64,000 nt of DNA from Acidobacteriota bacterium (GTDB lineage Bacteria > Acidobacteriota > Thermoanaerobaculia > Multivoradales > JAHZIX01), in contig JAXHTF010000006.1 of NCBI GenBank assembly GCA_034211275.1, positions 17,361-81,360 on the forward strand, in the 5' to 3' direction. Of this stretch, positions 6,303 to 52,560 are shown piece by piece (the first letter of the stretch is position 1; the number at the start of each line of letters is the position of its first letter). Below the pieces are notes generated by a model, which saw only the letters and a program-made list of their open reading frames with translations, was not told the DNA's origin and did not search any database. A program made the position numbers and the translations under genes.

Positions 6303-9785
<3,483 letters not shown>

Positions 9786-13096: not shown

Positions 13097-14232
<1,136 letters not shown>

Positions 14233-14236
<4 letters not shown>

Positions 14237-19443: not shown

Positions 19444-19550
19444 GCCCGCATTCTACAGCCAATCGGCCTCCTACCGCCCTCCCGGCAAACAGCACCCGCA
19501 CCTCTTGACGTCCCTCGCCGTTCTGCATACACTCTCGCCTCTGACGGTTG

Positions 19551-19626
19551 CCTAGGTAGCTCAGTTGGTAGAGCACGCGACTGAAAATCGCGGTGTCGGT
19601 GGTTCGATTCCGCCCCTGGGCACCAT
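19551..19626 (+). tRNA. tRNA-Phe (anticodon GAA), including encoded CCA.
   Basis: gcctaggtagctcagttggtagagcacgcgactGAAaatcgcggtgtcggtggttcgattccgcccctgggcacca forms a canonical cloverleaf with anticodon loop cuGAAaa. Confidence 0.9.
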
Positions 19627-19693
19627 TTCAATCTCCCAGAATCAACAGTTTGCGTCGGATATAGAGGTCCTCCTTGGAGGGCCTTTTTTGGTT
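19580..19693. repeat. attL: left copy of a ~110-bp direct repeat (tRNA-Phe 3' half plus ~65 bp downstream).
   Basis: gactgaaaatcgcggtgtcggtggttcgattccgcccctgggcaccatttcaatctccca is identical to 52375-52434. The following ~50 bp (…gaggtcctccttggagggccttttttggt) are near-identical to 52441-52488. Confidence 0.85.
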
Positions 19694-19975
19694 TGCCTGA
19701 CCACCGGACGAGCCTTGCGAGCAAGCCGGGGTGCTCGAGCCTCTTGGGTTTGTCGATTCTTGTCCCTTGGACTCCAAGAACAGGAAACGGAAATGCAGCT
19801 ACTGTGAGGTCGTCCTGTAGTTGTCTGATTCTGCCTTTAGGAGCGCCTCATTTTTTAAGGTTCCGAAGTAGCCTGAACGAGCCGGGGCACGGAGCCTCAA
19901 GTGTCGATAGGGCGTCCAAGCCAACGAATGGCCATCATGGCCCGTAGAGCTAGAGAGAGTTGGGAGGTGTGTCCG

Positions 19976-25497: not shown

Positions 25498-28400
25498 ATG
25501 ACAGTGCTGAGATGGACTGGGATCGTGCTTGCCGGCTTGATAGCGCTCTGTGCGACCGCAAGGGCAAGTGCAGAACTCGACTCCTCCTGCCTCATCAGCG
25601 CTCTGAACCGGACGGCTCCGGTGGAAGCGGACGGGACGTGGGTCTTGCCGAATGTGCCGGCGAATCTGGGCAAGGTGCGGCTGCGGGCGACCTGTATTCG
25701 AGATGGCGTTGTTTCCACCGGCCAATCCGAGTTCATCGAGGTGCCAACGGATGGGGTGATCGAGGTGGCGGAGATTCGCTTTGATGTGAGCGAGCCGGTG
25801 CCGGAGCGCCTCGTGCTCAGTGCACCGACCACTTCCTTGACCACCGCTGGACAGACCGTGCAGCTCAACGCGACCGCTACCTATCCGGGTGGCAGCGATG
25901 TGGACGTGAGTACAGCGTCCGCTGGGACCACCTATCGCTCCAGCATGGCGACGGTGGCAAGCGTGGATCCCGATGGACTCGTCACCGCGGCAGCCAGCGG
26001 TACGGTCCTCGTGAGCGCGGTCAACGAGGGAGCGCTGGGGCTCTTGCGGCTATCTGTCGTGCTCTCAGGGGACAGCGATGGCGATGGGCTGCCGGATGAT
26101 TTCGAGCTCGCTAACGGGCTCGATCCCAACAATCCCGACGATGCGTTGCTCGACCATGACCAGGATGGGTTCTCCACCCTGGAGGAGTACCAGCAAGGGC
26201 TCGATCCCTTCGATAGCGATACGGACGATGACCAGCTGCTCGACGGCGCCGAGGTCGGGACCTGGGGCACCAATCCCCTCCTCTTCGATACTGACGGCGA
26301 CGGCCTCTCGGACGGCCTCGAGGTGGCGACGGGGAGTGACCCGCTGGACCGGCTGAGCTTCAACCTCGCTGCGGCGTTGGAGTCCATCACGGTGCTGCCG
26401 GACAGCTTCACCATCATCTACAACACGATTCTCGGCGAAGCCTCCCGGCAGCTGACGGTGACCGGACAGCTCATCGACGGCAACCAGCTCGACATCACCT
26501 CGGACTTTTACGGCACCTCCTACACCTCGGACGATCTGCTCGTGGCCAATTTCGGGGCGGAGCCCGGGCGTGTTTTTGCCGGGGAGGACGGCGTCACCAC
26601 CGTCACCGCGACCTGTAGCGGGTTCAGCGCTCAGGCAGATGTCACGGTGGAGAGCTTCGCGCCCATTGCTCTTTCCTTCCTGGCGCTCGGTGGAACGCCG
26701 CGGGCGGTGGCCCTGGACGGGACTCACGCCTACGCTGCCATGGGGCGCCCGGGACTCAAGATCGTCGATGTCAGCGACCCTGAGCTTCCCTTCGAGGCTG
26801 CTCGCATCTATGTCTCCTCCCCGCCGCCCTTCCGGGAGTACCGCGCGGTTTCCGATGTCGCGGTGCAGGACGGCATGGCCTATGTCGCAGCGGACGGACT
26901 GGCCGTGATCGATGTGACCGTGCCGGCCGCTCCAGTGCAGATTGCCTTCCTCTTGCCACCGGACATGAGCGCAGAGTCGGTGGCCGTTCGGGGGCATCGA
27001 GTGCTCGTCGGCGGGAGTGGCTTCCAGGGAGACCCGGGAGCCCTTGCCCTTATCGATATCAGCGACCCCGTGACCCCAGTGCTTCTCGGAATGGTCGGCC
27101 TGCCCGGGCAAGTCGAGGATGTGCTCTTTGCAGGGCAGTACGCGATTGCCGCGACGGGCTCTGCCGGCGTTCAGGTGGTCGATCTGGCGAACGAAGCGGC
27201 ACCCGAGGTGGTCGGCTCAACGCATACCCGCTCGAATAGTCGCTCCAGTGCGGTGGGGCTGGCGCTCGCGGGCGAGCAGGTCCTGGTGGCTGACGGTGGC
27301 CGGTACGGACTGCCAGGCGAAAAGCCGGGTGGGCTCCGCGTGATCGATCTGGCCGACCCGGCCAATCCCGCCCTCGTAGGGAGCACGAACAATCAGTTCG
27401 GTCTGACCGCTGTCGCTTGGGATGGCACGCTAGCGCTCGCTGCGGACTACTTCTTCGTCAATGGCGTGCCGGTCTTCCGCTTGGGGGAGACGGCGCCGCT
27501 GTGGACCGGCCTGGTGGACTTTTCCGGGCCGCCCAGTGGGCGAGACGACAACGGAGTCGATCTGGCGGTCGGGGGAGGGTTGGTGTACCTGGTCGGCAAT
27601 GAAGGCTCCACCGGTTCAGGAGGGCTTCATATCGGTCGCTACCTGATTCCCTTCGACGCCGAAGGCGTTCCGCCAACGGTGACCTTGACGGCTCCCGCCG
27701 AGGGAACGTTGGTGCCGGAGCGGCAGTGGGTCCAGGTCGCAGCGGATGCCAGCGATGACATCTTCGTGCAGTCCGTGACGTTCTCGCTGGACGGTCAGCC
27801 GGTGCGGGAGGACTTCGCGCCGCCGTATAGCGCCCGTATTCCGGTTCCGGCCGGCGTGGCCTCTGTCACTGTGACAGCGCAAGCCCGGGACGCTGGGGGC
27901 AATGTGTCGCCGGTTGCTTCAGTCGAGCTCGGCATTGAGCCCAACAGCGCACCCGTTGCCACGATTCTGGCGCCTCAGGACGGTTTGGGGGTGCAGGGGG
28001 GCGAGGTGATCTCCACGGTCGTCCAGGCGACGGACGATGTCGAGGTGGATCGGGTGGAGTTCTATGTCGATGGAGCGCTGGTTGGAACCGATGATCGTGG
28101 CCCCTCCTACCAGACCTTTCTGAATCTCGGATCCGCCCCTGGTACCTACCAACTCACTGCTCTTGCCTACGACGACGTTGGTCCCTCCGCGCCTGCGGGT
28201 CCGGTCTCGCTCGTTGTCGTGCCGGACGATCCGCCACAGGCCCAGGTACTGGAGCCGGCGGAAGGGGCTGAAGTCATCGCCTTCTCCTTGATCGATGTCC
28301 TCGCAGGAGCCAGTGATGCCGTGGGGATCGACCGCGTGGACTTCTACCAGGATGGCGCCCTGGTTGGCTCCGACTTTTCCGGGCCGGACTACCGAGCGAC

Positions 28401-29376
28401 GCTCGCGACGCCGGGGCCCGGAGCGGTGTTGGAGCTCTGGGTAGTGGCCTACGACACCGCTGGGCAGGAGACGATGTCGACGGTCAACGAGGTCACAGTG
28501 GTCGCCGATCCGTTGACGGCAGTGACGGGCGTGGTCGTGGGGCTCGCAGATGAGCCCTTCGCTAGCGCCACCGTCTCTGCGCGAACGAATGAGGGCACGA
28601 CCGTCAGCGGAATGAGCGATAGCAGCGGAGAGTTTCTCGTGGAGCAGGTCCCTGCGGCTCAGGGAGATCTCTCGGTCTCGGTCGTCGCGCTGCAAGATGG
28701 GGAAGAGCTGCGGGCGAGCTTGCCGGAGCCGGTCTCGCCGGCAGCGGGGGGCGTCGTGGACGTAGGCGTCCTCGCGCTGTACTACGCAGTGCCGGGCACG
28801 CTGCTACGAGGTGTGGTCGAGGATGACGCAGGGAATCCTGTGCCCGATGCTCAGGTGGCGGTGCATGATCGTTTCCAGCGCCAAGAAACCATCACGGACA
28901 GCTCCGGAGAGTTCGTCTTCTCGCGCTTCCCGGTGTATCCGGGAACCCGCTTCTATCTCTCCGCCGAAGCGACCCTGAGCAGTGTGCTCTACCGAGGGAA
29001 ACTGCCCAATGTCATTCCCAATCCCATCGGCGATACCGATGCCGGCGTGCTGACCCTCGCGCCCGAGGCCGGCGGTGATCCGCTGACTACGGCGATGGGT
29101 ACCGTTCTGGACGAGGAAGGAGCCCCACTGCCGGACTTCGAAGTCGTGGTGACCTCCGACAGCGTCCTTGTGGTGACGATGACAGATGCAAGCGGTCAGT
29201 ACACGGTGCCGGATCTGCCGGCTCTAGATGGCGGCCTCGTCGCTGCGGCCAGCGGGGTCGTCGATGGACAGTCCTATCGCGAGGCGACCGAGGATCCTGC
29301 GGCACCTGTACCTGGTGGGACGACAGTCCTCGATACGCTCTATCCCTTTGGCGAGGACGGTGGGGGTGATGGATAG
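25498..29376 (+). CDS. Giant secreted surface protein (1292 aa) with thrombospondin-type-3-like Ca-binding Asp repeats, LVIVD/beta-propeller-like repeats and many Ig-like/CarboxypepD_reg-like modules.
   Basis: Signal peptide. DSDGDGLPDDFELANGLDPNNPDDALLDHDQDGFSTLEEYQQGLDPFDSDTDDDQLLDGAEV...FDTDGDGLSDGLEV (TSP3-like). Repeated GxAYVA..GLAVIDV..P / LALIDISDP / VQVVDLAN / LRVIDLADP (LVIVD-like). Serial Big-like units. Confidence 0.7.
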   Translation: MTVLRWTGIVLAGLIALCATARASAELDSSCLISALNRTAPVEADGTWVLPNVPANLGKVRLRATCIRDGVVSTGQSEFIEVPTDGVIEVAEIRFDVSEPVPERLVLSAPTTSLTTAGQTVQLNATATYPGGSDVDVSTASAGTTYRSSMATVASVDPDGLVTAAASGTVLVSAVNEGALGLLRLSVVLSGDSDGDGLPDDFELANGLDPNNPDDALLDHDQDGFSTLEEYQQGLDPFDSDTDDDQLLDGAEVGTWGTNPLLFDTDGDGLSDGLEVATGSDPLDRLSFNLAAALESITVLPDSFTIIYNTILGEASRQLTVTGQLIDGNQLDITSDFYGTSYTSDDLLVANFGAEPGRVFAGEDGVTTVTATCSGFSAQADVTVESFAPIALSFLALGGTPRAVALDGTHAYAAMGRPGLKIVDVSDPELPFEAARIYVSSPPPFREYRAVSDVAVQDGMAYVAADGLAVIDVTVPAAPVQIAFLLPPDMSAESVAVRGHRVLVGGSGFQGDPGALALIDISDPVTPVLLGMVGLPGQVEDVLFAGQYAIAATGSAGVQVVDLANEAAPEVVGSTHTRSNSRSSAVGLALAGEQVLVADGGRYGLPGEKPGGLRVIDLADPANPALVGSTNNQFGLTAVAWDGTLALAADYFFVNGVPVFRLGETAPLWTGLVDFSGPPSGRDDNGVDLAVGGGLVYLVGNEGSTGSGGLHIGRYLIPFDAEGVPPTVTLTAPAEGTLVPERQWVQVAADASDDIFVQSVTFSLDGQPVREDFAPPYSARIPVPAGVASVTVTAQARDAGGNVSPVASVELGIEPNSAPVATILAPQDGLGVQGGEVISTVVQATDDVEVDRVEFYVDGALVGTDDRGPSYQTFLNLGSAPGTYQLTALAYDDVGPSAPAGPVSLVVVPDDPPQAQVLEPAEGAEVIAFSLIDVLAGASDAVGIDRVDFYQDGALVGSDFSGPDYRATLATPGPGAVLELWVVAYDTAGQETMSTVNEVTVVADPLTAVTGVVVGLADEPFASATVSARTNEGTTVSGMSDSSGEFLVEQVPAAQGDLSVSVVALQDGEELRASLPEPVSPAAGGVVDVGVLALYYAVPGTLLRGVVEDDAGNPVPDAQVAVHDRFQRQETITDSSGEFVFSRFPVYPGTRFYLSAEATLSSVLYRGKLPNVIPNPIGDTDAGVLTLAPEAGGDPLTTAMGTVLDEEGAPLPDFEVVVTSDSVLVVTMTDASGQYTVPDLPALDGGLVAAASGVVDGQSYREATEDPAAPVPGGTTVLDTLYPFGEDGGGDG

Positions 29377-29479: not shown

Positions 29480-29737
29480 ATGGCTGCATCTTCCGAGGCC
29501 CCACCAATGGCGACCCTGACCATCGAGCTGGCTTCCATTCCGCCGGTGCTCAACGATCCGGAGTTCACGCGCTATCTGATCGCCGGATCGCTCTACACCA
29601 AGGGCCTGCTCTCCGGAGAGCAGGCGCGGCAGTTGACGGGCGACGTACGGCGCGTCTTCGAGGAGAAGATGGCTACCTATGGGTTCCCGATCATGCCGGA
29701 TGCCGAGGTAGATATCCTTTCAGAGCTGAATGCCTAG
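29480..29737 (+). CDS. UPF0175-family small protein (antitoxin-like helical fold).
   Basis: 85 aa, AGSLYTKGLLSGEQARQLTGDVRRVFEEKMATYGFPI resembles the UPF0175 consensus (ALeLYkeGklSlgkAAELAG..r.eF...L...GI). Confidence 0.5.
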   Translation: MAASSEAPPMATLTIELASIPPVLNDPEFTRYLIAGSLYTKGLLSGEQARQLTGDVRRVFEEKMATYGFPIMPDAEVDILSELNA

Positions 29738-29841
29738 GTACGGCGCTTTCGTCGCCGATGCCAGTCCCCCGACCCCTCGCTCGACAAGCCGCCCATGGGG
29801 TCGCGACGAGCGGCGCACTCTGCTGGAAGGAGAAGCACAGG

Positions 29842-30657
29842 ATGTCGGTAAGCGAAGCCTCGGATCGTCTGTTGACTTCAGGCCCGCGGGCACTTTCCGA
29901 TATAGAGCTCCTGAGCGTGATTCTCGGCCACCGGTCGGAGATGCCGGAGCAGGTCGCTGAGCACCTGCTGGCGGGACCAGACGCCTGGTCCGAGCTGGTT
30001 CTGGCCGATTCAGCGGTGCACGAACGACCAGATCTCCAGCCCGCTGAAGCTGGTGTCGTGGCGGCGACCCTTGAGCTGGGCAGACGCCTTGCCGAACGGC
30101 GCATCCCCAAACGCAGACCACTTTCGAAGCCCCGGGCGCTCACGACCTATCTCGACCTCCGCTACGGGTACCGAGATCAGGAAGTCCTCGGCGCTTTGTA
30201 TTTGGACGCTCGCCACCGGCTACTCAGCGAGACGGAGATCTTCCGCGGGACGCAGAACCGTACCAGTGTTGAACCGGGACCAATCCTCCGCAAAGGGCTA
30301 CTGCAGGGTGCGGCCAGCGTGGTGATCTTCCACACGCACCCCAGTGGGAATCCCGCCGCCAGCGCCGCCGACATCGCCTTCACCCGCCGCCTGGCGCAGT
30401 CGGCGGATATCGTTGGGCTCAAGCTGGTCGATCACCTCATTCTGGGGCGCGGAGGGCGCTGGATGTCTTTGCTCAAGCGCGCATGGGTCACGGGACCTCG
30501 GCGCAAGCGCAAGTCGCCGCCGCCGAAATCGAAGGCCGCGAAGCCGAAGTACCGCCATCCCGAGACCGGAGAGACCTGGGCCGGGCGGGGCAGCATGGCG
30601 CGTTGGTTGCGGCTGGAGCTGGAGGCTGGGCGGTCGCTGGATGAGTTCCGGGTCTGA
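29842..30657 (+). CDS. RadC-like JAB/MPN-domain protein fused to an H-NS-type C-terminal DNA-binding domain.
   Basis: AGGAG-N9-ATG at 29842. RadC N-terminal SDIELLSVILG, JAMM motif VVIFHTHPSGNPAASAADIAFTRRL, then a basic linker and KYRHPETGETWAGRGSMARWL...GRSLDEFRV (H-NS C-terminus: KYrdPeTGkTWtGRGr.P.Wi...Gk.lddFli). Confidence 0.7.
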   Translation: MSVSEASDRLLTSGPRALSDIELLSVILGHRSEMPEQVAEHLLAGPDAWSELVLADSAVHERPDLQPAEAGVVAATLELGRRLAERRIPKRRPLSKPRALTTYLDLRYGYRDQEVLGALYLDARHRLLSETEIFRGTQNRTSVEPGPILRKGLLQGAASVVIFHTHPSGNPAASAADIAFTRRLAQSADIVGLKLVDHLILGRGGRWMSLLKRAWVTGPRRKRKSPPPKSKAAKPKYRHPETGETWAGRGSMARWLRLELEAGRSLDEFRV

Positions 30658-30779: not shown

Positions 30780-32090
30780 TTGGCCAGTTTCCTGGGCACT
30801 CCCTTTCGCTGGCTCTTCGGGATCTTCCGCTCGCACATCCACGGCGACGCCCGCTTCATGCGCTGGTGGGAGCGCCGGCGGTTTCTGCATCCGCGGCACC
30901 ATGGGCTGGTGCTCGGCCGGAATCAGCGGCTCAGCCGGCAGGACTCGTTCAAGAATCTGGCGCTGGTGGCGCCGACGGGATCAGGGAAGACCACGCGGTA
31001 TGTGATTCCCAACGTGTTGCAGGTCGAGGGCTCGGTGGTGGTGACCGATCCCTCCGGAGAGATCCACCAGCACACTGCGGAGCCGCTGCGAGCCCGCGGG
31101 TTCGGGATCCAGGTGCTCCAGCCGGCGAAGCTCGGGGAGAGTGCCCGCTTCAATCCTCTGATGTACTGGCAATCACCCCAAGAGCTCCGCCAGCTGGCGA
31201 CGCAGCTTGGTATGGCCACGCAGGGGCGCTCCTCCGATCCGTTCTGGACGACCTCGGCGATTAACCTGCTTTTCGTGTTGCTCACCGCTCTCCGCAACGT
31301 CGAAGACCGTCGACGCCACACGCTCGGACATCTACGGGATCTCTTGAACCAGTGTGGTGCGGCGGAGGGTCAAGACTTCGAGCGCTTCATGGCCCGGTAC
31401 CTGGCGATGGAGAAGCGGGTCTGGAGCGAGTACCAAGCCTTCCGCGGGCAGGATCCGAAAGTGGCCGCCTCGATCACTTCCAGCGCCCGGGCTGCGCTGG
31501 AGCTGTGGAGCGATCCGGATATCTGCGCCCTCACCAGCGAGCACACCATCGACCTGGCGGCGCTTCGGCAGCAGCGCACGGCTATCTACCTCATCGTGCC
31601 AGAGCACCAGATCCGCTACTTCGGTCCCCTGCTCAACCTCTTCTACTCCGCTTGCTTCAACCGCTGCCTGGTCAGCGGGCACGCACCTGAGGAAGAGCCG
31701 GTCTATTTCCTCCTCGATGAGTTCGGGAACCTCGGCTACGTTCACAACTTCGCTAGCGTCATCACCACCCTGCGCAAGCGACGGTGCTCCATCAGCCTGA
31801 TCCTCCAGGATCTGTCCCAACTCCGTGCCATCTACGGCCCCGACGAAGCCCGCACCATCTTCTCCGGCGGCTGCGCCAATAAGCTCTTCTACGGTGGGCT
31901 CGACTTGGAAACGGCTGAGTATGTCGAGCGCGCCCTCGGCAAGCGCACCGAATACGACACCGTCTTCGGCGGGATCAGTGATCGCGCTCGGACGGTGGCG
32001 GTGCCGCTGATGACGGCGGATCAGGTGCGGAGGATGCGTTGGGGAGAGGCGGTGTTGTTGGCGGGGAAGGAGAGGCCGATACAAATCTAG
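30780..32090 (+). CDS. Type IV coupling protein-like ATPase (VirD4/TraG/TraD family) lacking an N-terminal membrane anchor.
   Basis: Walker A LALVAPTGSGKTTRYVIPNVL, Walker B/DE VYFLLDEFGNLGY, C-terminal ...LILQDLSQLRAIYG...SGGCANKLFYGGLD. No TM helices. The track start is TTG at 30780; ATG at 30858 is an alternative. Confidence 0.65.
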   Translation: MASFLGTPFRWLFGIFRSHIHGDARFMRWWERRRFLHPRHHGLVLGRNQRLSRQDSFKNLALVAPTGSGKTTRYVIPNVLQVEGSVVVTDPSGEIHQHTAEPLRARGFGIQVLQPAKLGESARFNPLMYWQSPQELRQLATQLGMATQGRSSDPFWTTSAINLLFVLLTALRNVEDRRRHTLGHLRDLLNQCGAAEGQDFERFMARYLAMEKRVWSEYQAFRGQDPKVAASITSSARAALELWSDPDICALTSEHTIDLAALRQQRTAIYLIVPEHQIRYFGPLLNLFYSACFNRCLVSGHAPEEEPVYFLLDEFGNLGYVHNFASVITTLRKRRCSISLILQDLSQLRAIYGPDEARTIFSGGCANKLFYGGLDLETAEYVERALGKRTEYDTVFGGISDRARTVAVPLMTADQVRRMRWGEAVLLAGKERPIQI

Positions 32091-32121
32091 ACTACGGCCG
32101 GCTCGTTCGAGTTCAGTCCGG

Positions 32122-33696
32122 TCAGAGTGCCCTTGAGAGCATTTCTTTGAAGCGTTCCAGGGCGATAGCTATCGGTCCGGCAAAATCCCCTGCCGTGTCC
32201 TTGAGCTGTCCGAGGAGAGCAAGAATCTGCTGTACTCGATTCCAGTCCATCTCCTTCTTCTTGACCTCCTCTTCGAGCCCCTTAGCCTCGGTGAGCGCTT
32301 GCCTAGACTGCTCGCTAGGCTTACTGTCATGCCATCTTCCAATCCAGGTCTTTAGGTCCTGGATATCAGTCAAGAGGAACTCCACCTTCTCAAGGGTGAT
32401 TTCTCCTCGAATGTTGTCGCCTTTGTAAACGATTATCGTCTTTGCGTGGAAAGTGTCGCCTTCGTATTTACCCCTCATTGCGCCGATTTCCTCTCTTGGT
32501 TGGTTGCTGTCAGATGACAGCTGTGGTGGAAACTTAGAAACCCATTCGGGGACTCGAAGAGGGCCGACTACTCTGGTTTGCTCTTTGCTCACCTTTGGAT
32601 TACTTCGCTCGCGCTCGAGACAATCTGCGAGCTCTTTGAAACGTTTGCTGGACTCTTCGTGGCTGGAGTCCTCAGGAGCCTCGAGGAAGAAGTTCATGAA
32701 TCCATGCTCTTGCTCGTCAGAGTGAATCTTCGTTGTGTTGCCGACTCTCCATATGTCGATCTCTCCAAAGCATTTTGTAATGTCGTGAAGCAATCCACGA
32801 GTGGTGTGAGCGCCTTCAGGTTCGTTGACGAACGTATAGGAGAATTGTACGCCTCGGAACCTGTGGAGCTGCCCCGGGGGTAAAATCGAAATTCGAAGAA
32901 TATGGCTATGAATATCTATTGATGCAAGGGCATAGATCGTTTCGTTGTAGCAAGGGGCGCCGCAGATATTCAGTACGATGTCTCTCCAGAGAGATGTCTT
33001 CGTAATTGATATGCCACGGGCTACGCATTCACCCTCGATAAATTTATCTCGTGCTCTCCGTTCCCTTTCTTCTGGGCTGTTCGCGTGCCCCCACTCGTCG
33101 AACTCTTGGATTTCTCTAGTGTAGGTCTTGTAGCGGTAGTAGTCTCGAAGGTGCCGATAGCTGACTCGTTTAAGGTCAGGATGGTCTCTGTCTGGTGGAA
33201 ATAAAAACTTATTTCTTGCTTCATGGTTAGCTACAAGAATTCGATTTTTGGCGTAGTCTGCCGCTTCTCTTGAGCGGCTCTCGGCAGTTTTGAGGCTAGC
33301 GTCCGCTGTTTCTCGCACTTTCTGGCAGTCTAGGATGATATTCCAGAGCGCAGAGCGATGTCCGCTTCGGACAACGTTCGTAGTTAGAATGTTCATTCCG
33401 ACATCTTCGCTTGTTAGAATCTCCGTAATCCTCTGGAGAGATCCGGGGCGATGGCTCATGTTGACATTGAACCTTACTAAGTAAGGCCAAAGTTCTGTGC
33501 GGAATGGGCTTACTATTATGTCGTGTCGGTTAGGGAAGGTTTTGTAGTCTTCTAAGATGTCGCCGCTTTCGTCTCTTCGAGGAGGGTAATACAGGCAGTA
33601 GACTTGGCCTCCAGTCTCAATGCCGAGTGGGCGAAGAAGGTAATCCTCTATGAGGAGCTGGTTCCCTTGGATCTTAATCAAGTCACCGTAGATCAT
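32122..33696 (-). CDS. Hypothetical protein (524 aa), low GC; last gene of a three-gene cargo operon.
   Basis: No recognisable catalytic motif. It has a possible ACT-like segment (GSLQRITEILTSEDVGMNILTTNVV) and an R-x5-H match (RILVANH). Local GC is ~50% against ~68% in the host. Confidence 0.5.
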   Translation of the reverse strand: MIYGDLIKIQGNQLLIEDYLLRPLGIETGGQVYCLYYPPRRDESGDILEDYKTFPNRHDIIVSPFRTELWPYLVRFNVNMSHRPGSLQRITEILTSEDVGMNILTTNVVRSGHRSALWNIILDCQKVRETADASLKTAESRSREAADYAKNRILVANHEARNKFLFPPDRDHPDLKRVSYRHLRDYYRYKTYTREIQEFDEWGHANSPEERERRARDKFIEGECVARGISITKTSLWRDIVLNICGAPCYNETIYALASIDIHSHILRISILPPGQLHRFRGVQFSYTFVNEPEGAHTTRGLLHDITKCFGEIDIWRVGNTTKIHSDEQEHGFMNFFLEAPEDSSHEESSKRFKELADCLERERSNPKVSKEQTRVVGPLRVPEWVSKFPPQLSSDSNQPREEIGAMRGKYEGDTFHAKTIIVYKGDNIRGEITLEKVEFLLTDIQDLKTWIGRWHDSKPSEQSRQALTEAKGLEEEVKKKEMDWNRVQQILALLGQLKDTAGDFAGPIAIALERFKEMLSRAL

Positions 33697-33750
33697 CGTT
33701 CCTTAGCTCTCCTGCCTAACGGGTTCTGTTCTTTTTTGCGGTCTTCGAGG

Positions 33751-34509
33751 TTACTCTGAGTTTGAGCACATCAGTTTGCCTACAAGCCTGTTTAAGAGTT
33801 CCTCATCCTCTGGAGACAAGTCCCCGAGAGCTTTCAGGCTACTTCGCAGTTTGAGTAGCTCTTCGCGAGCCCAGAAAAGCTTCTCGCTTTTTAAGTCAAG
33901 AATATTCAGGAGAAGTCGGTGTTTCTCTGACGCATCTAGTTCACGGAGAACCTCCAGTTTTTCACCTTTGTAGTACCGTTCTCTTAGATTATTCGTCTCC
34001 TTGATGGCGTTATAGATAGATCTGAGCGCTGGTAGTGCTGCTTGCATACTGGTCGAAAGTGCCGGCTCATCTTCACTTCTACTTTCACTGAGATGGGGTA
34101 CAAGCTTCTCGAGTAGGGTGCCGACAAGTTCAAAGTTCTTGCTGTGGAGTAGCTGCTCTTCAGTGAAGCCTGTCCAGTAAAGAGTTTCGGCGCTTAGAGG
34201 AGGGTGAAACTCGAGCTTGCATGAGATCTGAGCAAGGCCCTGACGATCAAAAAGTCCAGTCTTGAACAAAGACAGAGCAATGTGTTTGTCGCTCCATACT
34301 TGGACGGGCTCAGGAGTGGATTCCAAGAGTCTGCGAACCTCTTGGCGACGTTCTGATACTTGCTCTAGAAGCAACTGAAGCTGATCCCGCAGGTAGGTGA
34401 GGCGATCAAGTTCCTCTAGCGCATTGTGTGCAGGGTGCGCGAGCAGGGGAAGGGCGTTGTGCTCCTGTGGGCCCGGGGCGACAGCCTCGGGGAGTTCCGA
34501 TGTTGACAT
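33751..34509 (-). CDS. Hypothetical coiled-coil protein (252 aa); middle gene of the cargo operon.
   Basis: Heptad-rich LEELDRLTYLRDQLQLLLEQVSERRQEVRRLLE. No known domain. Confidence 0.45.
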   Translation of the reverse strand: MSTSELPEAVAPGPQEHNALPLLAHPAHNALEELDRLTYLRDQLQLLLEQVSERRQEVRRLLESTPEPVQVWSDKHIALSLFKTGLFDRQGLAQISCKLEFHPPLSAETLYWTGFTEEQLLHSKNFELVGTLLEKLVPHLSESRSEDEPALSTSMQAALPALRSIYNAIKETNNLRERYYKGEKLEVLRELDASEKHRLLLNILDLKSEKLFWAREELLKLRSSLKALGDLSPEDEELLNRLVGKLMCSNSE

Positions 34510-34571
34510 ATTTCATTTGGGTAAAATAGCGAAGAGCTTAGAGTACGGAAGCGACTCTCTGATTGTCAAGG

Positions 34572-34772
34572 TTATTTTCTTTCCTGGGCGTTAAGGAGCT
34601 TGGCGAGGGACTTTGCCTGAGCAAGTGCCCGTTGCGCTACGCACTCCGGTCCATCTAAATAGGTTCCGGGTTCTACTTCTCTGGCTAGGAGTCCGGCCAT
34701 CGCGAGGCCAGCTAAGAAGGTGAGCTGGTCAATCTCTGCTTTCGAAGCTGCTCGATCTTCTTGCTTGGGCAT
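34572..34772 (-). CDS. Hypothetical small protein (66 aa); first gene of the cargo operon.
   Basis: ORF with a 62-nt gap to the next gene on the same strand. Small helical. Confidence 0.3.
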   Translation of the reverse strand: MPKQEDRAASKAEIDQLTFLAGLAMAGLLAREVEPGTYLDGPECVAQRALAQAKSLAKLLNAQERK

Positions 34773-35011
34773 TGGGCGCTACTCGCTTAGATATTCCAAT
34801 AAGTGGATATTCGCCACTCGTGCTGAAGCCGATGGCACAGTGATGTCGCTAGTTAGTGAAGGGATCGTAACACAAAAGATTCTGAAAGGTGACTGTGGCA
34901 AGGGTGGCGCTTTGAGAGAGTGATGATCTTGAGCATCGGGTGGGTCTGGAGCTCGTATTGAAGGGCTTCCGATCCGAGGCTCAAGAGTTTCTCTCTGTAC
35001 CGCAGCAGGCG

Positions 35012-35584
35012 TCATTTCTCTTCAGAGTGGAGCTCCTTGCGCACCCAGAGCCTCACTCCCGCCACTGTCAACTCATACAGATCCACATCCAGCTCGCCTT
35101 CGACCTGCCGATACTCATACACCTGCCACGGCGGCTCATCCCGTTCGGCGTGGTGCGCGAAGCTGGAGTACGGGTTGTCGGGGAGAAGAGCGCTCAAAGG
35201 AAGATCGAGATCGTCGAGGAGATCTTCAACTACTTGGAGGGCGCTCCGGGCACGTGCTTCGCCCAGGTAGCTGATCACCAGGGCGCTGAGGGACTCGATG
35301 CGAGTGCGGAGGTTGTCGAGAGTGAGGCCGTTGAGGTCCAGGCCGTAGTCGTCGCCGTATTCCTCCAGAATGGTGAGCTGCTCGTCGAGGTCGAGGTCGA
35401 TGACCAGGCACTCGTCGAGCGCCCAGTCTTCCAGGGCTTCGCGGCACTCTTCGAGCGTGGCGCGGGGATCGTGACGGAGGCGGTATTCGATGAGTTCGAG
35501 CTGGCGGGCGCAGGCTGTGTCGATAGCTTCGTTGGCAGCTGCGCTGAGATGAGGATGGTGGGAGTCGAGAGAAGCGAGGGACAT
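35012..35584 (-). CDS. Highly acidic hypothetical protein (190 aa) immediately downstream of the relaxase gene.
   Basis: Asp/Glu/Leu-rich (DLDLDEQLTILEEYGDDYGLDLNGLTLDNL...DLLDDLDLPL). Confidence 0.45.
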   Translation of the reverse strand: MSLASLDSHHPHLSAAANEAIDTACARQLELIEYRLRHDPRATLEECREALEDWALDECLVIDLDLDEQLTILEEYGDDYGLDLNGLTLDNLRTRIESLSALVISYLGEARARSALQVVEDLLDDLDLPLSALLPDNPYSSFAHHAERDEPPWQVYEYRQVEGELDVDLYELTVAGVRLWVRKELHSEEK

Positions 35585-35622
35585 GTGAGGAAGGGTGAGA
35601 GGGTAAGAAGAACGGGAGAGAA

Positions 35623-36474
35623 TCAGCGCTCCCGGTCGCGAGATTGGGGCTTTTTGGCTGGAGGCGCACGGGAGCGGTCGAGCGAGGAATTGGGAAGCTC
35701 CGGCGCAAGCCGCCAGGCCTGACGCGCGCGCTCAAAGGTCTCGGCGAGCCCCAGCGTCGTCAGCCGATAGCGTCGACCACTGCGCAGATCCTCGACGCCG
35801 ATGGTCTTGCCCCGCTGGTAGAGGCGGAGGCCCTGCTGAAGGAGGCGCTGGTAGCACTCGGCGCCCGACCATGACCGGCTGAGCTCCTGCTGGATCAGTT
35901 CACATAGGACTTGCTTGCGACTGGGCGCTCGCTCTCCACGCCGGCGACGCTCTTGTTCTGCCCGCGTCTCGTGTTGCTTGCTTCGCGAACGGGGTCCTTG
36001 CGCCAGGGAGTGGCTCAGCTGCGGATAGCGCTGCTTCTGGTACTGCTCCAGCTGCTGTTGTACCTGGCGGAACTCTCGTCTCGACAACCGCAGGCGCTGC
36101 GAGCTGCCGACGTTGTTGGCGGAGATCACCAGGTGAACGTGCGGGTTGTCCGCATCGAAGTGAGCGCGACCGTAGGCCAGGGCGTACGGAGCCCGCAGCT
36201 CCAGGTACCGGCGGGTCAGGTCTGTCAGATCCTCAGGGGCGAGCTGATCTCGATCCCCCGGTGCAAAGCTCAGCACCTCGTGGTAGAGCACGTTCCCGTT
36301 CTTGCGCGGTGGCAGGAGATGGGCGTTGTGCAGGAACTCCCGCCGGATCGCTTCGGGTGAACCGTGTCCTCCGAAGTTGTGGAGGAGTGGAGTGCTGGCT
36401 TCTTGGGGCCGGTCGATGTAGCTCAGCAGCTGGCCGAAGCTGATGCTCTTACGCGCCATCGACTTGATGATCAT
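35623..36474 (-). CDS. Relaxase/mobilization nuclease (MobA/VirD2-like, HUH).
   Basis: MIIKSMARKSISFGQLLSYI... NVLYHEVLSFAP ... NPHVHLVISANNV is the Relaxase/Mobilisation nuclease domain pattern with its His cluster. Start is the Met at 36474 (cat verified), overlapping the mobC end. Confidence 0.75.
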   Translation of the reverse strand: MIIKSMARKSISFGQLLSYIDRPQEASTPLLHNFGGHGSPEAIRREFLHNAHLLPPRKNGNVLYHEVLSFAPGDRDQLAPEDLTDLTRRYLELRAPYALAYGRAHFDADNPHVHLVISANNVGSSQRLRLSRREFRQVQQQLEQYQKQRYPQLSHSLAQGPRSRSKQHETRAEQERRRRGERAPSRKQVLCELIQQELSRSWSGAECYQRLLQQGLRLYQRGKTIGVEDLRSGRRYRLTTLGLAETFERARQAWRLAPELPNSSLDRSRAPPAKKPQSRDRER

Positions 36475-36841
36475 GAGCCTGGCTATCGCTGGGAAGTTCC
36501 TCGAGGGTCTTCTGGAGCACGCCGACCACGCGCTCCAGCGTGAGCACGAGCTTGCCAGCGTTGCGCAGGTCTTGGTGGGTGACCCGCTGGAAGGAGTTGG
36601 CATGCGCCGCCATCTGGTTGAGGTTGGTGCCGACGCGACGAATCTCCTGGATCATCTGCCCCAGGTGCTTCTGGAGAGAGTCCGGCAGCATCGTGCGTCG
36701 CTGGCAGTAGGCGATGGCCGCATCCCGTAGGAAGGGCGCGAGCTTTGCGCCGAAGCTCCGGGCGGTGGTGAGCAGCAGCTCGTGCTGGTGGGGGTAAAGG
36801 TTGCAGGTGACGCGGTGCGTGTAGGTGCCGTGCAAGGCCAT
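36449..36841 (-). CDS. mobC: MobC-family relaxosome accessory protein.
   Basis: EIRRVGTNLNQMAAHAN matches the MobC signature (IRRIGNNLNQIAR..N). It sits upstream of and overlaps the relaxase gene. Confidence 0.7.
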   Translation of the reverse strand: MALHGTYTHRVTCNLYPHQHELLLTTARSFGAKLAPFLRDAAIAYCQRRTMLPDSLQKHLGQMIQEIRRVGTNLNQMAAHANSFQRVTHQDLRNAGKLVLTLERVVGVLQKTLEELPSDSQAHDHQVDGA

Positions 36842-37384: not shown

Positions 37385-37960
37385 TCAGGTCGTCCTCTCG
37401 CTATCTATGATCACCTGCTGTGTCGCGCATTCAGATATATCGCCCGGGAGATGCAAAATCCCAGGCCACGATTCGCTCTGAAGTCCGGCTCGAACATAGT
37501 ATTCGAACAAGGTCTCCCCGTTTGGGCCGACAATACAAATTGCGATTTCCTTAGTCTCGCCGGGCTTGCCTTCGAGCCAGTTCACTTGAGCTCGCCAAGA
37601 TTTCGTCTGGCGACTGATGCTCGCCGCGGGCTGCTGTGGCCAGTAGATTCGCTGACTGCCGTCTCCTTCTACGGTACATACCCAAAGCTGGAGGTCTTTA
37701 GGGAGGTGCTGAAAAGTCCCGTGGACTCGGAAAGAGCGATGTACCTTTTCGCCTGGTCGAGGAGATGTGATCTGAATCAATGCTTCCGTGTCTAGATCTG
37801 CCACTGAAGTTGATTTGCTAGCCAAGCCTGCAAGCTGATTCCGAAGGGCTTCTATCCTATGTTTTAGAAGAAAGATTACAGCCGATCCGGCTAGCAGCAG
37901 CAGTGCTACGACAGGAGGCCATCCGACCCAGTCTGAGAGGGCTTGGAGTTCCGTCAACAT
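37385..37960 (-). CDS. Hypothetical membrane-anchored protein (191 aa), low GC.
   Basis: N-terminal TM helix WPPVVALLLLAGSAVIFLL, then a soluble domain. No motif. Confidence 0.45.
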   Translation of the reverse strand: MLTELQALSDWVGWPPVVALLLLAGSAVIFLLKHRIEALRNQLAGLASKSTSVADLDTEALIQITSPRPGEKVHRSFRVHGTFQHLPKDLQLWVCTVEGDGSQRIYWPQQPAASISRQTKSWRAQVNWLEGKPGETKEIAICIVGPNGETLFEYYVRAGLQSESWPGILHLPGDISECATQQVIIDSERTT

Positions 37961-38227
37961 CTAAATCCTTCCTAGAGTAATCCCTTTGGTAGGAGGCTGG
38001 TTGCTAGGCTCATCTCCAGTGTTGCTGCTCTCAGGCTTGCCTCGTCCAAGAAATGAGACTCTTGAAAGTATTGACGCGTCACGAGGCGGCCTTTTGGCCA
38101 ATACTGCAGTTCGCTCCATATATTGCCGATTATCATTGGGGTGGCCCGAACGGAAGATGTCCTGACTGTTTGGTGCTGGGAACTCAATGGCTCTGTTAGG
38201 CGGGTCGCCCCCAAGATGTAGCTTCAC
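37961..38227 (-). CDS. Hypothetical small protein (88 aa).
   Basis: ORF abutting the previous gene (stop/start adjacent). Low GC. Confidence 0.25.
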   Translation of the reverse strand: MKLHLGGDPPNRAIEFPAPNSQDIFRSGHPNDNRQYMERTAVLAKRPPRDASILSRVSFLGRGKPESSNTGDEPSNQPPTKGITLGRI

Positions 38228-38461
38228 CTGAGGTATTAAGTCCTTGCGCCTGCTCGCAGACCATGAAACTATAGCGTAATTGGTCTAAATAGCGAGCTAC
38301 GTGCCTATTTTGCGCCTGCTACGTCCTGTTCGCAGGACTGCTAAGGTCTTAGCAGCACTTTGAAAGTGCTCGGGTCCGTAACTCAGGCGAGTCTTGCACG
38401 CCGAGGCTGCGGTTGTAGCGGCGAGCGAGCGGAATTATGGACATATCTAAGGACCGAAGTG

Positions 38462-39883
38462 ATGATTGTGCCAGGTCGAAGCCTCTTGGCTCAGGTTCTT
38501 TTCCTGCTCGGGCTCTTTTCGATCCATGGGACAGGTCTTCAAGCGAGTGAGACAGATTTCGTTGTCCCTACAAGCCGTCTCAACCTGCGCGTATGTCCAA
38601 GTGTAGACGGGTGCAGAGTTATTGAGACCCTGGAGCCAGGCCGTGTTCTAGAGGTTACCGGGGCGCAAGGAGAATGGCTAGAAGTTCTGACGGTGGAAGG
38701 TCAAGCTTCTGGTTGGGTGCACGGTGCTTATACTTCTCCTTCTGACCCCCCGTCTCAGCAACTTGGATCCGAAGAAGCGGTTGTGAATGGAGAGCCGTTC
38801 TCAGGCACCTGGCTCAACATTGCCGCTCTCTTAGTAGCCCTACTTCTAATGGCTCATATGGGATCCAATATGAGTCAAGGTCTTAGCTTTGCAAAATTGG
38901 GGATCCTCATTGCATTTAGTGGGTTACTTGGTGTTGTTCTTATACTGAATCAGTTTGGGCCGCTGCTGCAGCATTGGGTGCCTCCGTCGTTGCGGCTTCA
39001 AAAGCTAGATTTTCTTTGGGAGCCAGACCTACTCGCCGCTACTGAGGTAGGGTACACGGGCTTTCTACTGATACTGGCGGCTCTTGTATTCTCTACGTGG
39101 TTGTCTGCTCCGAGTAAAAGTGGGTGTAAGTCGTCTTTTCTCCAGGGTTTGGCTCTGGGGTTCCTGGCCGTGCCCGCGACTGCTGTGGCAGGCGCCTTGG
39201 GCTGGTTGGCCTTGAGAATTTTACTCTTCCTGTTCGTCGTTCTCGGAGTGATTCTAGTTCCTGTAGTCTGGATACTTGAGCACATAGTTGGGCCAGTGCT
39301 GCAGTGGCTTGCGACGCCACTGATATGGCTTTGGGAGAACGGTCTTAGGGATGTCGTGATCTGGCTTCTGACGCCAGTTAGATGGCTAGTAGAGACCATT
39401 CTGGCCCCAATTTCAAAATTCTTGGCAAAGTATGTTTTTATACCCCTTGGCAAGTTTGCGCTTCGAGTCTCGGTAGCACTCCTTCTACTCTTGCCGGTGT
39501 GCTTACCAGGCACGGCACTCATCAGCTCCTTCCGCACCGCGCTACGGGATCCCTTTGACTCCGTAGGCCTGTTTTCCCATGGGGTCGGGGTTGGCTTTGC
39601 ACTCTTCGACTGCGTACTCTTATCGGTACTAGCTGAGGCTGGAGTGCTCACTTCGACCCCACCCTTGAGCCTCACGTTGCTCGTTGGACTGGCCTTGGTA
39701 GGTATGGCGAGGCTGCTAATTCTTCGACTGTCTGGTCTAGAAGGAGGTGAGGACCCTCCTTTGAAGGTAAAGATTTTTCTTTACCTCCGTAGGTCTTGGA
39801 TCGAGGCTGTATTGAATGGCGTTCTGGGGCCAACTGTAATGATTCTTAGGATTGTGGCACTTGACTCTGATTCCTCTGATTAG
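38462..39883 (+). CDS. Hypothetical polytopic membrane protein with an N-terminal bacterial SH3-like domain.
   Basis: ATG at 38462 (MIVPGRSLLAQVLFLLGLFS signal), then RLNLRVCPSVDGCRVIETLEPGRVLEVTGAQGEWLEVL...GWVHGAY (SH3b-like), then at least 8 predicted TM helices. Confidence 0.5.
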   Translation: MIVPGRSLLAQVLFLLGLFSIHGTGLQASETDFVVPTSRLNLRVCPSVDGCRVIETLEPGRVLEVTGAQGEWLEVLTVEGQASGWVHGAYTSPSDPPSQQLGSEEAVVNGEPFSGTWLNIAALLVALLLMAHMGSNMSQGLSFAKLGILIAFSGLLGVVLILNQFGPLLQHWVPPSLRLQKLDFLWEPDLLAATEVGYTGFLLILAALVFSTWLSAPSKSGCKSSFLQGLALGFLAVPATAVAGALGWLALRILLFLFVVLGVILVPVVWILEHIVGPVLQWLATPLIWLWENGLRDVVIWLLTPVRWLVETILAPISKFLAKYVFIPLGKFALRVSVALLLLLPVCLPGTALISSFRTALRDPFDSVGLFSHGVGVGFALFDCVLLSVLAEAGVLTSTPPLSLTLLVGLALVGMARLLILRLSGLEGGEDPPLKVKIFLYLRRSWIEAVLNGVLGPTVMILRIVALDSDSSD

Positions 39884-40067
39884 AAGCCTATGTGTTGTTT
39901 TTGGCTGAGCTTTGTGTAGGTACTGTAAGCGAGGAATTGGAAGATCCCATCCTTGTATTTTCATCTACCATTGGCTAATGGGGGCGCTTGAGGGATGCCA
40001 AAGCTCTGCGGTCGTCGGTGGGCTTTTGCGGCACGTTTGGACGCGCTTTGACGCAGTATAGTCACTG

Positions 40068-41885
40068 CTATTGAGGTTTGATGTCAGGCATGAGGTTATA
40101 AGGAATATAGTATCCTGATATGAGCAGTGTGTGCCCGCTTTTTCCATCCTCGGGCAGGGCTAAGTCCTTGGGTACTTGGAAGGTGACTTCCTCTCCCTTT
40201 CGGAGAGTGAGGTAGTGGCCGTCGATACGGTGTAACTCACTGAGTTCGGATAGGGGAACTGCGGAGTCGGTTGGCTGAGAGCAGTCAGTGCAGATTGCTA
40301 GATAATCCAAGAAGGAGACTTCATCTTCTTCTTCTGAGAGAGTGAATTCCGTTACTCCCAGTGGGAGGGTGATTGAGTCCGTCATCTGAAACGTCCGGGT
40401 TACAGCCTCTGGGAAAACTGGTCGCAACCGAACTCTTTTTGCGTTCTTGGTGGCATAGAGGATCGGGCAGGAACCTTTTGCAAAGCCTCCCCGAACAAGG
40501 ACATTGGTTGGGTCGAAGCGACGGACAGAAAGAGAAGAGCGGGCTTTTCCAAAGCTTGCTACTATATGGTCAACGCGCCAGGAGGACCCTAGAATGTAGC
40601 TGTCCGTGATGTTCTTGAAGAAGGCCTTCTGGTCCAGTAGCTCCTTCGAGACTTCTCGAGACTTGAGGATGGCCTCTCGGTTTTGATCGATTCCGAGTAG
40701 AAACTGTATCCCAACTGCGTCGCCTGGGTACTCAGCCCACCATCTCTGTGGGAGATCCCGCTCCAAGAGTATGTTCTCTGCACCCCGATCTCCATATCTA
40801 CCATTCGATCCTAGTCTGAACTCGATTTGGAGGGGCACGAGAAGGTGTTCTCCTGGGAGCAGCTCTTCCAAGGGTACTTTCTGGGGATCAGGGTCGCTTG
40901 CCTCGAAGGCGTCGGTTTGTTCTTCTGGGCTTGTTAGCGTGAATGCCTTTCTTGATATAGATCTTGACAGAAGTCGCTCAATTGCCACTGGCTGATCGCT
41001 CACGTTTTCTATATCTAGAGAAAGCAGGGAGACCTCGCGCTGGAGTATATGCCCCGAGTAAGTGCCCCAGCTCTCTGAGAAGCGAGCCAGAAAAAGATCT
41101 TTTGGCGGGGAATCCACTGACAAGAGAGCGCGGGTAAGAGGGTCGTTAAGGTATTGAGTTGCTTCTTCTGGGCTTAGGGTGCCAAGAAAATAGAAGTCGA
41201 AGGGTCTAAGGGGCTGCTTGAGAATCTGGGCGCGATCATCTGGGGCAATAGTCCAGTAGGGGCTATCAAGCAGGCGTTTCTCAAGAGTTGATGCCTCTAC
41301 GTTCTTGATTAGAGGGCCTGCTCTAAGGGGCCTCAAAGATCCGAATAGGGGTTCTCGCAAGCGTCGCCATTCGTCCCTGTCGACGACTCCTGGTATATCT
41401 TTAAAGAATTCTTCCTCTCCTTTATTTCCCATGAAAACATTCATGGCGTCATATGGTAGCCGATGCTCTGGCGCATGAGCACTAATGCCTCCGCGCATCT
41501 TAGTTGCGCCCTTGATGGTGTACCTGATGACCTCTTCTAGATCCTTGAAAATGTCATTTTTTAACCAGTATGGTTCGAATAGAAAACCCTCCTTCTCGGA
41601 GAATGCATAGCCCTTCAGGGCGCGATCAAGAAGCAGTAGGCCATCTAGGCGAAGGTAGGATATTCGGAGATCCCTGTCTTGTGGTCCGGAAGCCTCATCC
41701 AATTTGTCGAAGTTTGCCTTGCCCATTCTACTATTTCTTGCTGAGTCATTGGGGCAGGATCCAGTGAGAAACAAGACCAAAGAGATCGCCGGGCCGAGCA
41801 CTCCTGCAATGCATCCAATATAAGTGGCTTTGGAAGGCAAATGCCATTTATTCCACTGTGTGCGTGTGGGGATGAGTTTCTTCAT
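40068..41885 (-). CDS. Hypothetical large membrane-anchored protein (605 aa), low GC (~48%).
   Basis: N-terminal TM helix YIGCIAGVLGPAISLVLFLTG. The large domain has no motif I can assign. Confidence 0.5.
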   Translation of the reverse strand: MKKLIPTRTQWNKWHLPSKATYIGCIAGVLGPAISLVLFLTGSCPNDSARNSRMGKANFDKLDEASGPQDRDLRISYLRLDGLLLLDRALKGYAFSEKEGFLFEPYWLKNDIFKDLEEVIRYTIKGATKMRGGISAHAPEHRLPYDAMNVFMGNKGEEEFFKDIPGVVDRDEWRRLREPLFGSLRPLRAGPLIKNVEASTLEKRLLDSPYWTIAPDDRAQILKQPLRPFDFYFLGTLSPEEATQYLNDPLTRALLSVDSPPKDLFLARFSESWGTYSGHILQREVSLLSLDIENVSDQPVAIERLLSRSISRKAFTLTSPEEQTDAFEASDPDPQKVPLEELLPGEHLLVPLQIEFRLGSNGRYGDRGAENILLERDLPQRWWAEYPGDAVGIQFLLGIDQNREAILKSREVSKELLDQKAFFKNITDSYILGSSWRVDHIVASFGKARSSLSVRRFDPTNVLVRGGFAKGSCPILYATKNAKRVRLRPVFPEAVTRTFQMTDSITLPLGVTEFTLSEEEDEVSFLDYLAICTDCSQPTDSAVPLSELSELHRIDGHYLTLRKGEEVTFQVPKDLALPEDGKSGHTLLISGYYIPYNLMPDIKPQ

Positions 41886-52488: not shown

Positions 52489-52560
52489 TGCTTGGGCTGA
52501 AGGGACTTGGTCCGGAGGGGCTCGAGTGGGAGCGTCTCGTGGCGTTTCTGAGAACCCTAG

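Follow-up and report, generated by a model that had tools for sequence, protein, structure and literature searches.

We analysed a 64,000-nucleotide window of an Acidobacteriota genome (contig JAXHTF010000006.1, forward-strand positions 17,361 to 81,360; positions below are those of the window) that contains a cassette of three minus-strand genes, p524, p252 and p66, encoding proteins of 524, 252 and 66 residues. The ~2.9-kb stretch that holds them (about 32110-35010) was acquired horizontally, as cargo, and occupies a variable slot between the 3′ ends of a type IV coupling protein (T4CP) gene and a relaxase operon on a genomic island. p524, the largest of the three proteins, is a member of an undescribed family defined by an N-terminal module with two predicted ACT domains, and roughly a third to three quarters of its relatives carry the module fused to a predicted SARM1-like TIR domain. 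We tentatively favour the view that the cassette is an acquired conflict module, defence/abortive-infection-like or addiction-like, in which a ligand-sensing switch would control an output supplied by the p524 C-terminus, by p252 and p66, or by all of these. A first-pass annotation had proposed the three genes as a candidate novel defence or anti-defence system, and this interpretation is partly supported by what follows.

The genes p66 (34572-34772), p252 (33751-34509) and p524 (32122-33696) follow one another on the minus strand with intergenic gaps of 62 and 54 nucleotides, confirming the tight spacing first described. The guanine-plus-cytosine (GC) content is 0.47-0.53 over ~32200-35000 and 0.62-0.66 in both flanks, in agreement with the earlier estimate of a ~50% GC cassette in ~65% GC flanks. 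The contrast extends to third codon positions (GC3), with values of 0.51-0.55 for p524, p252 and p66 versus 0.72-0.84 for the backbone genes encoding the T4CP, relaxase, MobC, p190, a Toprim protein, both integrases and RadC. The open reading frames (ORFs) of p524 and p252 are far too long for chance occurrence at 50% GC. Length alone is not enough to make p66 convincing as a gene, so its codons were compared with a usage model derived from the island's low-GC genes. The p66 score was 0.076, compared with 0.088 ± 0.048 for in-frame 66-codon windows of low-GC genes, and 1.6% of off-frame windows scored higher. Given the ORF lengths of p524 and p252 and the codon usage of p66, all three genes are probably real, p66 included. 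A competing 78-residue ORF (34779-35015), which overlaps the p190 stop codon, was rejected as non-coding, with a codon score below that of every true window. Upstream of p66 lies a non-coding, low-GC leader of 239 nucleotides (34773-35011; GC 0.52), which presumably carries the promoter and forms the cassette's left edge; it contains an imperfect 28-nucleotide inverted repeat (34917-34996), and searches of it found no sigma-70 consensus and no Rfam match. No consensus promoter or terminator was found between the cassette genes, and we sought flanking repeats, transposon ends and attC-like structures around the cassette and found none, nor any Rfam element.

To place the cassette in its genomic context, we fetched 86 loci with relatives of the T4CP and mapped the window proteins onto them; a metagenome scan with the single T4CP protein gave no match. 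In these related elements the common backbone arrangement is a MobC-relaxase pair convergent with the T4CP gene, with relaxase and MobC conserved in loci L005, L006, L012, L013, L016-L018 and L029. What lies between the convergent genes varies. The slot is empty (~0.2 kb) in L007 and L017, and holds RadC only in L005, L006 and L013. In L012 (T4CP 64% identical) it spans 3421-9080 (-) and encodes an extracytoplasmic function (ECF) sigma factor, a Ser/Thr kinase-TPR protein of 925 residues, a CARDB and M23 peptidase protein (450 residues) and a 187-residue protein, and this cargo has ~50% GC within a ~62% GC backbone. In L018 (T4CP 52% identical) the slot, at 11423-14449 (-), encodes, in this order, a TIR_2 protein (181 residues), a protein of 219 residues, a ThsB_TIR protein (186 residues) and a Fic/DOC-wHTH protein (356 residues), and looks like a compact candidate TIR/Fic defence cluster. 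In L009, where the T4CP is 89% identical and upstream synteny is conserved, a 2512-residue surface protein and a HEAT-repeat protein occupy it. At the DNA level the window is homologous to L009 and L004 only as far as ~32080, about 10 nucleotides before the T4CP stop codon, and the right edge of the cassette lies within ~10 nucleotides of that codon. Because slot contents vary and DNA homology stops before the T4CP stop codon, we regard the cassette as hotspot cargo and not as part of the mobilization machinery. Its deviant composition and its variable slot uphold the earlier description of compositionally foreign cargo.

The position of the cassette bears on a different explanation, in which the three proteins are conjugation accessory factors acting in the relaxosome, in coupling or in entry exclusion. 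The cassette does lie between the relaxase operon and the T4CP gene, on the relaxase strand, and a T4CP gene likewise adjoins the closest homologue of p524. The cassette was initially placed directly between T4CP and relaxase; it is between them, but a GC-rich gene for the 190-residue protein p190 (35012-35584) separates it from the relaxase. We consider an accessory role highly improbable. Conserved synteny of the cassette with T4CP and relaxase was not found across related elements: only L004 of the 86 loci has a p524 relative, none has p252 or p66, and in L007 and L017 the relaxase is directly convergent with the T4CP. Moreover, the composition of the cassette is unlike that of the backbone, the lack of transmembrane segments argues against entry exclusion, and relatives of p524 are TIR fusions unrelated to conjugation. 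The possibility that these are housekeeping or conjugation accessory proteins, raised in the first-pass annotation as grounds for rejecting a defence role, is thus one against which the evidence weighs.

Domain searches with p524 returned nothing significant in Pfam, PADLOC, NCBIfam or PHROGs. A word-indexed search of 5.8 billion proteins recovered p524 itself only, annotated as hypothetical in an Acidobacteriota metagenome-assembled genome. This self-only result was misleading: exhaustive phmmer (HMMER) against 1.84 billion cluster representatives recovered 190 relatives with E ≤ 1e-3, 50 of them with E ≤ 1e-10, so that the family comprises ~190 clusters at 50% identity. Most relatives are ~500 residues long and their homology is restricted to p524 residues 1 to ~350. 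We found no description of an ACT-TIR or AbrB-ACT-TIR architecture in the part of the literature that could be searched. The earlier statement that the three proteins contain no recognisable domains does not hold for p524, whose N-terminal 350 residues form a confidently modelled tandem ACT module shared with these relatives.

An AlphaFold2 model of p524 from a single sequence was useless (predicted local distance difference test, pLDDT, 38). When built with a 150-sequence alignment, the model had pLDDT >90 over most of residues 1-370 and a predicted template modelling score (pTM) of 0.72. In this model a beta-beta-alpha-beta-beta element (2-47) precedes ACT1 (73-178), a helical insert follows (~125-217), and a second beta-beta-alpha-beta-beta element (219-272) precedes ACT2 (280-375). 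Foldseek searches against the PDB gave tandem-ACT proteins as top matches (2nyi, GcvR-like 1u8s, SerB and aspartate-kinase regulatory domains), whereas a PDB sequence search gave noise only and a BFVD structure search nothing significant. When the two halves of p524 were compared profile to profile, residues 8-155 and 223-361 aligned in register (E 8e-4, probability 25%). We read the modelled module (residues 1-345; 32662-33696, minus strand) as an internal duplication of a swapped-hairpin plus ACT unit, which would make it a single-chain pseudo-dimer.

The ACT part of this assignment is well supported. The beta-alpha-beta-beta-alpha-beta fold is present in p524, as are the beta1-alpha1 glycines G85 (in 110/140 family members) and G301 (136/140). 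The Pfam match that p524 makes on its own, to PF13291 (ACT_4) at residues 71-108, falls below the gathering cutoff (13.4 bits against 27; E 0.13); within the family, P0012 reaches 32.8 bits with a Pfam ACT model and 22 of 41 members have matches with E<0.01. The weak ACT-like stretch picked out by the first-pass annotation was therefore a true signal. The AbrB/MraZ-like assignment of the hairpins is putative and moderately supported, and no Pfam AbrB/SpoVT match was found. Every strongly conserved family residue is retained in p524, including W70 (140/140), R268 (135/140), G332 (130/140) and G301, and the further conserved residues E330, D59, G85, R110, G112, H113 and R114 are intact. Because all of these are kept, the sensor module looks functional. 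ACT domains are classic small-molecule sensors, and for this reason we infer that the module is probably a ligand- or trigger-sensing switch. The R-x5-H match reported earlier exists in p524 (R152..H158). A HEPN reading of it was rejected, as neither R152..H158 nor R177..H182 is conserved in 140 relatives, and R75..H82, which is conserved, lies on strand beta1 of ACT1 and not in an all-helical domain.

The best structural matches to the module are tandem-ACT regulators (GcvR-like 1u8s, 2nyi, aspartate-kinase beta subunits, the SerB ACT pair and the AHAS small subunit), with which p524 shares two ACT domains per chain and the beta1-alpha1 glycine loops. It differs from them in having a swapped hairpin before each ACT domain and a helical insert of ~90 residues, and in context: they belong to amino-acid metabolism, whereas the p524 family is found on a mobile element and in TIR fusions. 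A domain order of this kind could also suit a ligand-responsive regulator of the element, a one-component transcription factor like NikR (RHH plus ACT-like) or SpoVT (AbrB plus GAF) that would couple a metabolite to transcription of transfer or excision genes, with p252 and p66 as accessories. The beta-beta-alpha-beta-beta topology at 2-47 and 219-272 fits such a protein, the cassette follows the relaxase operon directly and in the same orientation, and a T4CP gene is also next to P0003, the closest homologue of p524. We consider this unlikely. Apart from L004, every other T4CP-related element examined lacks the cassette, so that it is no backbone regulator, and most relatives are TIR-fused, stand-alone and away from mobile-element genes. 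p524 has no sequence match to the AbrB, SpoVT or MraZ families in Pfam, and its hairpin consensus, LPxDLLxPLxIxxGS, appears on reading to be poor in the basic residues of AbrB-type DNA binders.

The C-terminal partner of the module in other family members gives an indication of what it may do. Of 41 aligned members, 18 have a Pfam TIR_2 domain, in every case C-terminal (~380-510). A locally iterated TIR hidden Markov model (HMM) detected TIR in rising numbers of 149 representatives over successive rounds (53, 63 and finally 112), the last of which may over-reach. The family profile matches the TIR domains of SARM1 and TIR-STING in the PDB (E 1e-8 to 1e-10). Members also match PADLOC and NCBIfam models (PDC-S66, ThsB, SAVED-TIR, retron-TIR and Thoeris type III ThcB4), in all cases via TIR; the sole NCBIfam match of the module itself is to the ACT portion of PRK08577, a 136-residue 'hypothetical protein' model. 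Most p524 relatives share the logic of sensor-TIR proteins of the SARM1, ThsB and TIR-STING type (PDC-S66, retron-TIR, SAVED-TIR), an N-terminal sensor followed by a C-terminal TIR. Like many of those proteins, they occur singly: the long forms stand alone in neighbourhoods of mixed content, some among ordinary genes and some near NACHT, Mrr or methyltransferase genes, as in L001, where a member lies beside NACHT, Mrr-like and ParB-methyltransferase genes. p524 differs from sensor-TIR proteins in having no TIR.

At the position of the relatives' TIR, p524 has a unique C-terminal region (residues 346-524 plus stop codon; 32122-32661, minus strand). In the AlphaFold2 model ~386-460 is disordered and three low-confidence helices follow (462-523). 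These final 179 residues have no match among the 149 family members, and a PDB sequence search with them gave noise only. A degenerate TIR was sought there and rejected, as the hhalign score was 12.7, no better than for shuffled sequences (8.5-20.3). In a MAFFT alignment W485 and Q489 fall under the TIR W-x3-E columns, probably by chance, and the catalytic glutamate is absent regardless.

A neighbour-joining tree of the N-terminal module places p524 in a clade of seven members, six of which have no TIR (P0003, P0004, P0007, P0009, P0077 and p524). P0003 is the closest relative (31% identity); it holds the same slot on a related element (L004), convergent with a T4CP gene whose product is 66% identical to that of the window, and the contig stops before its upstream region. 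P0009 is followed by a separate gene for a 317-residue SEFIR/TIR_2 protein and by a ParE-like gene, and an ORF on its upstream side overlaps it. Upstream of P0007 is a protein with two transmembrane segments (2-TM), P0004 is adjoined by a divergently transcribed 2-TM protein, and the two are homologous (BLASTP E 3e-13); P0004 also has an overlapping upstream gene for a 269-residue protein. The 2-TM protein may be a membrane effector partner of the TIR-less members. Its family, with a GxFGDxFGxxNALxSxLA motif, is represented at L002 2449-3207 (-), L011 122-757 (+) and possibly L010 1-303 (+). A possible identity of this partner with putAbiC was not confirmed, the sole Pfam match being a sub-threshold one to DUF6082. 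None of these partners, and no gene compared from upstream of the TIR-less relatives, is similar to p252 or p66.

The missing effector could also mean that the cassette is a decayed remnant, in which an ancestral sensor-TIR protein lost its TIR and the C-terminal tail, p252 and p66 are fast-evolving or de novo sequences without function. The lack of homologues for the p524 C-terminal 179 residues, p252 and p66, the low-confidence and partly disordered C-terminus and the absence of an effector domain are consistent with decay. Against it, the three ORFs are intact, p66 has in-frame codon usage, every family-invariant sensor residue is kept, and the TIR-less forms, six or seven in number, group as a clade with partners of their own, which points to a working architecture; a remnant is distinctly unlikely. 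An intact sensor module from which the killing domain is missing, carried beside the transfer genes of a mobilizable element, might instead act as an anti-defence decoy: a TIR-less copy that soaks up the trigger or ligand, or poisons the oligomers, of a full-length sensor-TIR protein in the recipient and so protects establishment of the element. The closest homologue, likewise TIR-less and in the same place on a related element, would suit this role. The TIR-less P0007 and P0009, however, adjoin their own putative effector gene (2-TM or SEFIR/TIR), as expected of split systems, identity to any TIR-bearing member is 20-30%, which is low for a dominant-negative mimic, and no full-length family member is encoded in the window, so that we hold a decoy to be quite improbable. 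P0009 with its separate SEFIR/TIR_2 gene resembles the split sensor and TIR arrangement of Thoeris, and the L018 slot has ThsB-like TIR genes. In contrast to Thoeris, a partner of the TIR, SIR2, SLOG or Macro type is missing from the window, and p252 and p66 resemble no Thoeris component.

The two smaller proteins are orphans in our searches. p252 is an acidic protein (Leu 20%, Glu 13%) that appears soluble and helical, with no transmembrane segment. It has two short heptad-like stretches, so that the coiled coil predicted for it earlier is at best partial. p66 is rich in Ala and Leu, with a hydrophobic stretch whose 14 residues fall short of a transmembrane helix (maximum KD19 hydropathy 1.33). 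Neither had a significant match in Pfam, PADLOC, NCBIfam, PHROGs or PDB sequences; the best PADLOC match of p252 was to HamB (E 0.025 over 66 residues), and p524 and p66 had none. These searches bear out the earlier conclusion that no known defence system matches the three proteins. In the word-indexed search of 5.8 billion proteins p252 and p66 each matched only themselves, p66 through an entry from a Logan assembly, with no NCBI-sourced entry; this search was word-indexed, exhaustive HMMER having been run on p524 alone, and does not exclude remote homologues of either. Homologues of p252 and p66 were also absent from the ORFs of 91 related loci and from the neighbourhoods of 10 p524-family members. 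p252 is possibly a partner or output subunit.

How far does this evidence carry the favoured reading of the cassette as an acquired conflict module? TIR is a hallmark effector of several defence systems, and because the relatives of p524 are mostly fused to TIR, the defence reading has an indirect basis: by association, a defence role for the cassette is plausible. In the mechanism that we propose, the module would sense a ligand or trigger. In the long forms this switch would gate a C-terminal TIR NADase; in the mostly TIR-less subclade the output would be supplied separately: one relative has a SEFIR/TIR gene next to it, and two or three others have a 2-TM protein. In the cassette described here, the output might be the unique helical C-terminus of p524, the orphans p252 and p66, or both.

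Several observations weigh against this reading. No recognisable effector domain is encoded anywhere in the cassette. A TIR domain in p524 was not detected with Pfam, PADLOC or NCBIfam models, and the family TIR HMM scored 0.2 bits; the 64-kb window encodes no TIR and no full-length member of the p524 family. The N-terminal module of family members matches no PADLOC model, and no Pfam or NCBIfam model as a unit. The defence role of the TIR-bearing relatives is itself putative. Several of the long forms are found among housekeeping genes and not in defence islands, and no p524 relatives were found in plasmid and phage collections. Organization of the cassette as an operon is suggested only by spacing and strand. 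Finally, with both p252 and p66 being orphans, the trio does not appear to recur as a unit, and a 'three-gene system' is currently unestablished. The proposal of a conserved three-gene system had been made on the understanding that it would fail if the genes never co-occurred elsewhere, and this is what the searches currently indicate. We hold a bolder form of the same idea to be doubtful. Here, the duplicated swapped-hairpin plus ACT module would be a previously unrecognised, portable conflict-system switch with interchangeable outputs (TIR in cis; SEFIR/TIR or 2-TM proteins in trans; here an output new in kind, from the p524 C-terminus together with p252 and p66). The three components of the cassette would then make up a new system of defence or anti-defence, carried by a mobilizable element.

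The island that carries the cassette is bounded by direct repeats at 19579-19692 (attL, plus strand) and 52375-52489 (attR), which delimit 32.8 kb and establish that the island proposed in the first-pass annotation is real. The repeats comprise 63 nucleotides at 98% identity and 58 at 83%, and attL consists of the 3′ half of tRNA-Phe (19550-19625) and adjoining sequence. A P4-type integrase gene (51010-52422) lies at the attR end; attR overlaps its annotated 5′ end, and the true start is probably further in. The T4CP gene (30780-32090, plus strand; PF02534, E 1.4e-64) is convergent with p524. T4CPs of this element family are short (~420-436 residues), and an N-terminal transmembrane segment is not evident on reading the sequence; these traits are conserved across L004-L009. 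The relaxase operon (35012-36841, minus strand; GC3 0.74-0.84) is upstream of the cassette and co-oriented with it, and encodes MobC/NikA (36449-36841, minus strand; Pfam), a MobA/VirD2 relaxase (35623-36603, minus strand; PF03432, E 5e-12) and, downstream of the relaxase, p190 (minus strand), which has backbone-like GC, is very acidic (isoelectric point 4.3) and has its sole homologue among the 91 loci in L024. p190 might be a relaxosome accessory protein or older cargo. The island also encodes a second integrase, a Toprim protein and a RadC-H-NS fusion. Type IV secretion genes were not seen in the ORFs scanned, and the island looks like an integrative mobilizable element, inserted at tRNA-Phe.

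The ~64% GC backbone of the island is broken by several ~50% GC patches, of which the cassette is one. Others are at 37385-41885 and 47892-50766, and encode a 191-residue protein with one hydrophobic segment, a 507-residue SH3_3 protein that looks multi-transmembrane and domain-less proteins of 605, 569 and 311 residues. Their GC3 of 0.51-0.57, like that of the cassette, suggests that the donors of this cargo were similar. Flanked by the Toprim gene and the second integrase gene, 44189-46471 (-) encodes a 760-residue AAA_13 ATPase (GC 0.51; PF13166, E 4e-149). The PF13166 family also includes AbiEii/PrrC/RloC-like proteins, and the gene is likely to be further defence-type cargo on the island. 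A 21-nucleotide direct repeat (95% identity) occurs within this gene (44320-44340) and within the relaxase gene (35869-35889) and may be due to chance.

On the other side of the T4CP gene, the RadC-H-NS fusion (29758-30657, plus strand) joins a RadC-like JAB domain (PF04002, E 3e-31) to a C-terminal H-NS DNA-binding domain (PF00816, E 2e-11) and is preceded by a small UPF0175 protein (29480-29737). Right after tRNA-Phe, inside the island, are genes for two giant surface proteins of 1509 and 1292 residues with Ig-like, glucodextranase-B and PKD repeats (19901-24430 and 25498-29376, plus strand), with a HEAT-repeat protein between them. The giant proteins are kept in L009 (2-7996) at 68-79% identity and are unusual cargo for a mobilizable element. 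Elsewhere in the window, ARAGORN called a tRNA-Asn at 59773-59847 (+) with the unusual anticodon ATT, which overlaps the 3′ end of a 418-residue ORF (59779-61035, minus strand) and may be a false positive or a degenerate tRNA.

For this family of mobilizable elements, the T4CP/relaxase junction is a cargo hotspot that has received TIR/Fic, signalling and surface-protein genes, and it provides a useful anchor for mining further cargo. The cassette in the window is the least interpretable member of its family, with no effector domain and two orphan partners, and is a lead and not a result. If the reading of its module is true, the p524 family would bring to light an uncharacterised sensor, as a unit not in Pfam, PADLOC or NCBIfam, that is found repeatedly alongside TIR effectors. 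Bacterial TIR immunity would thereby gain a sensor of the small-molecule (ACT) type.

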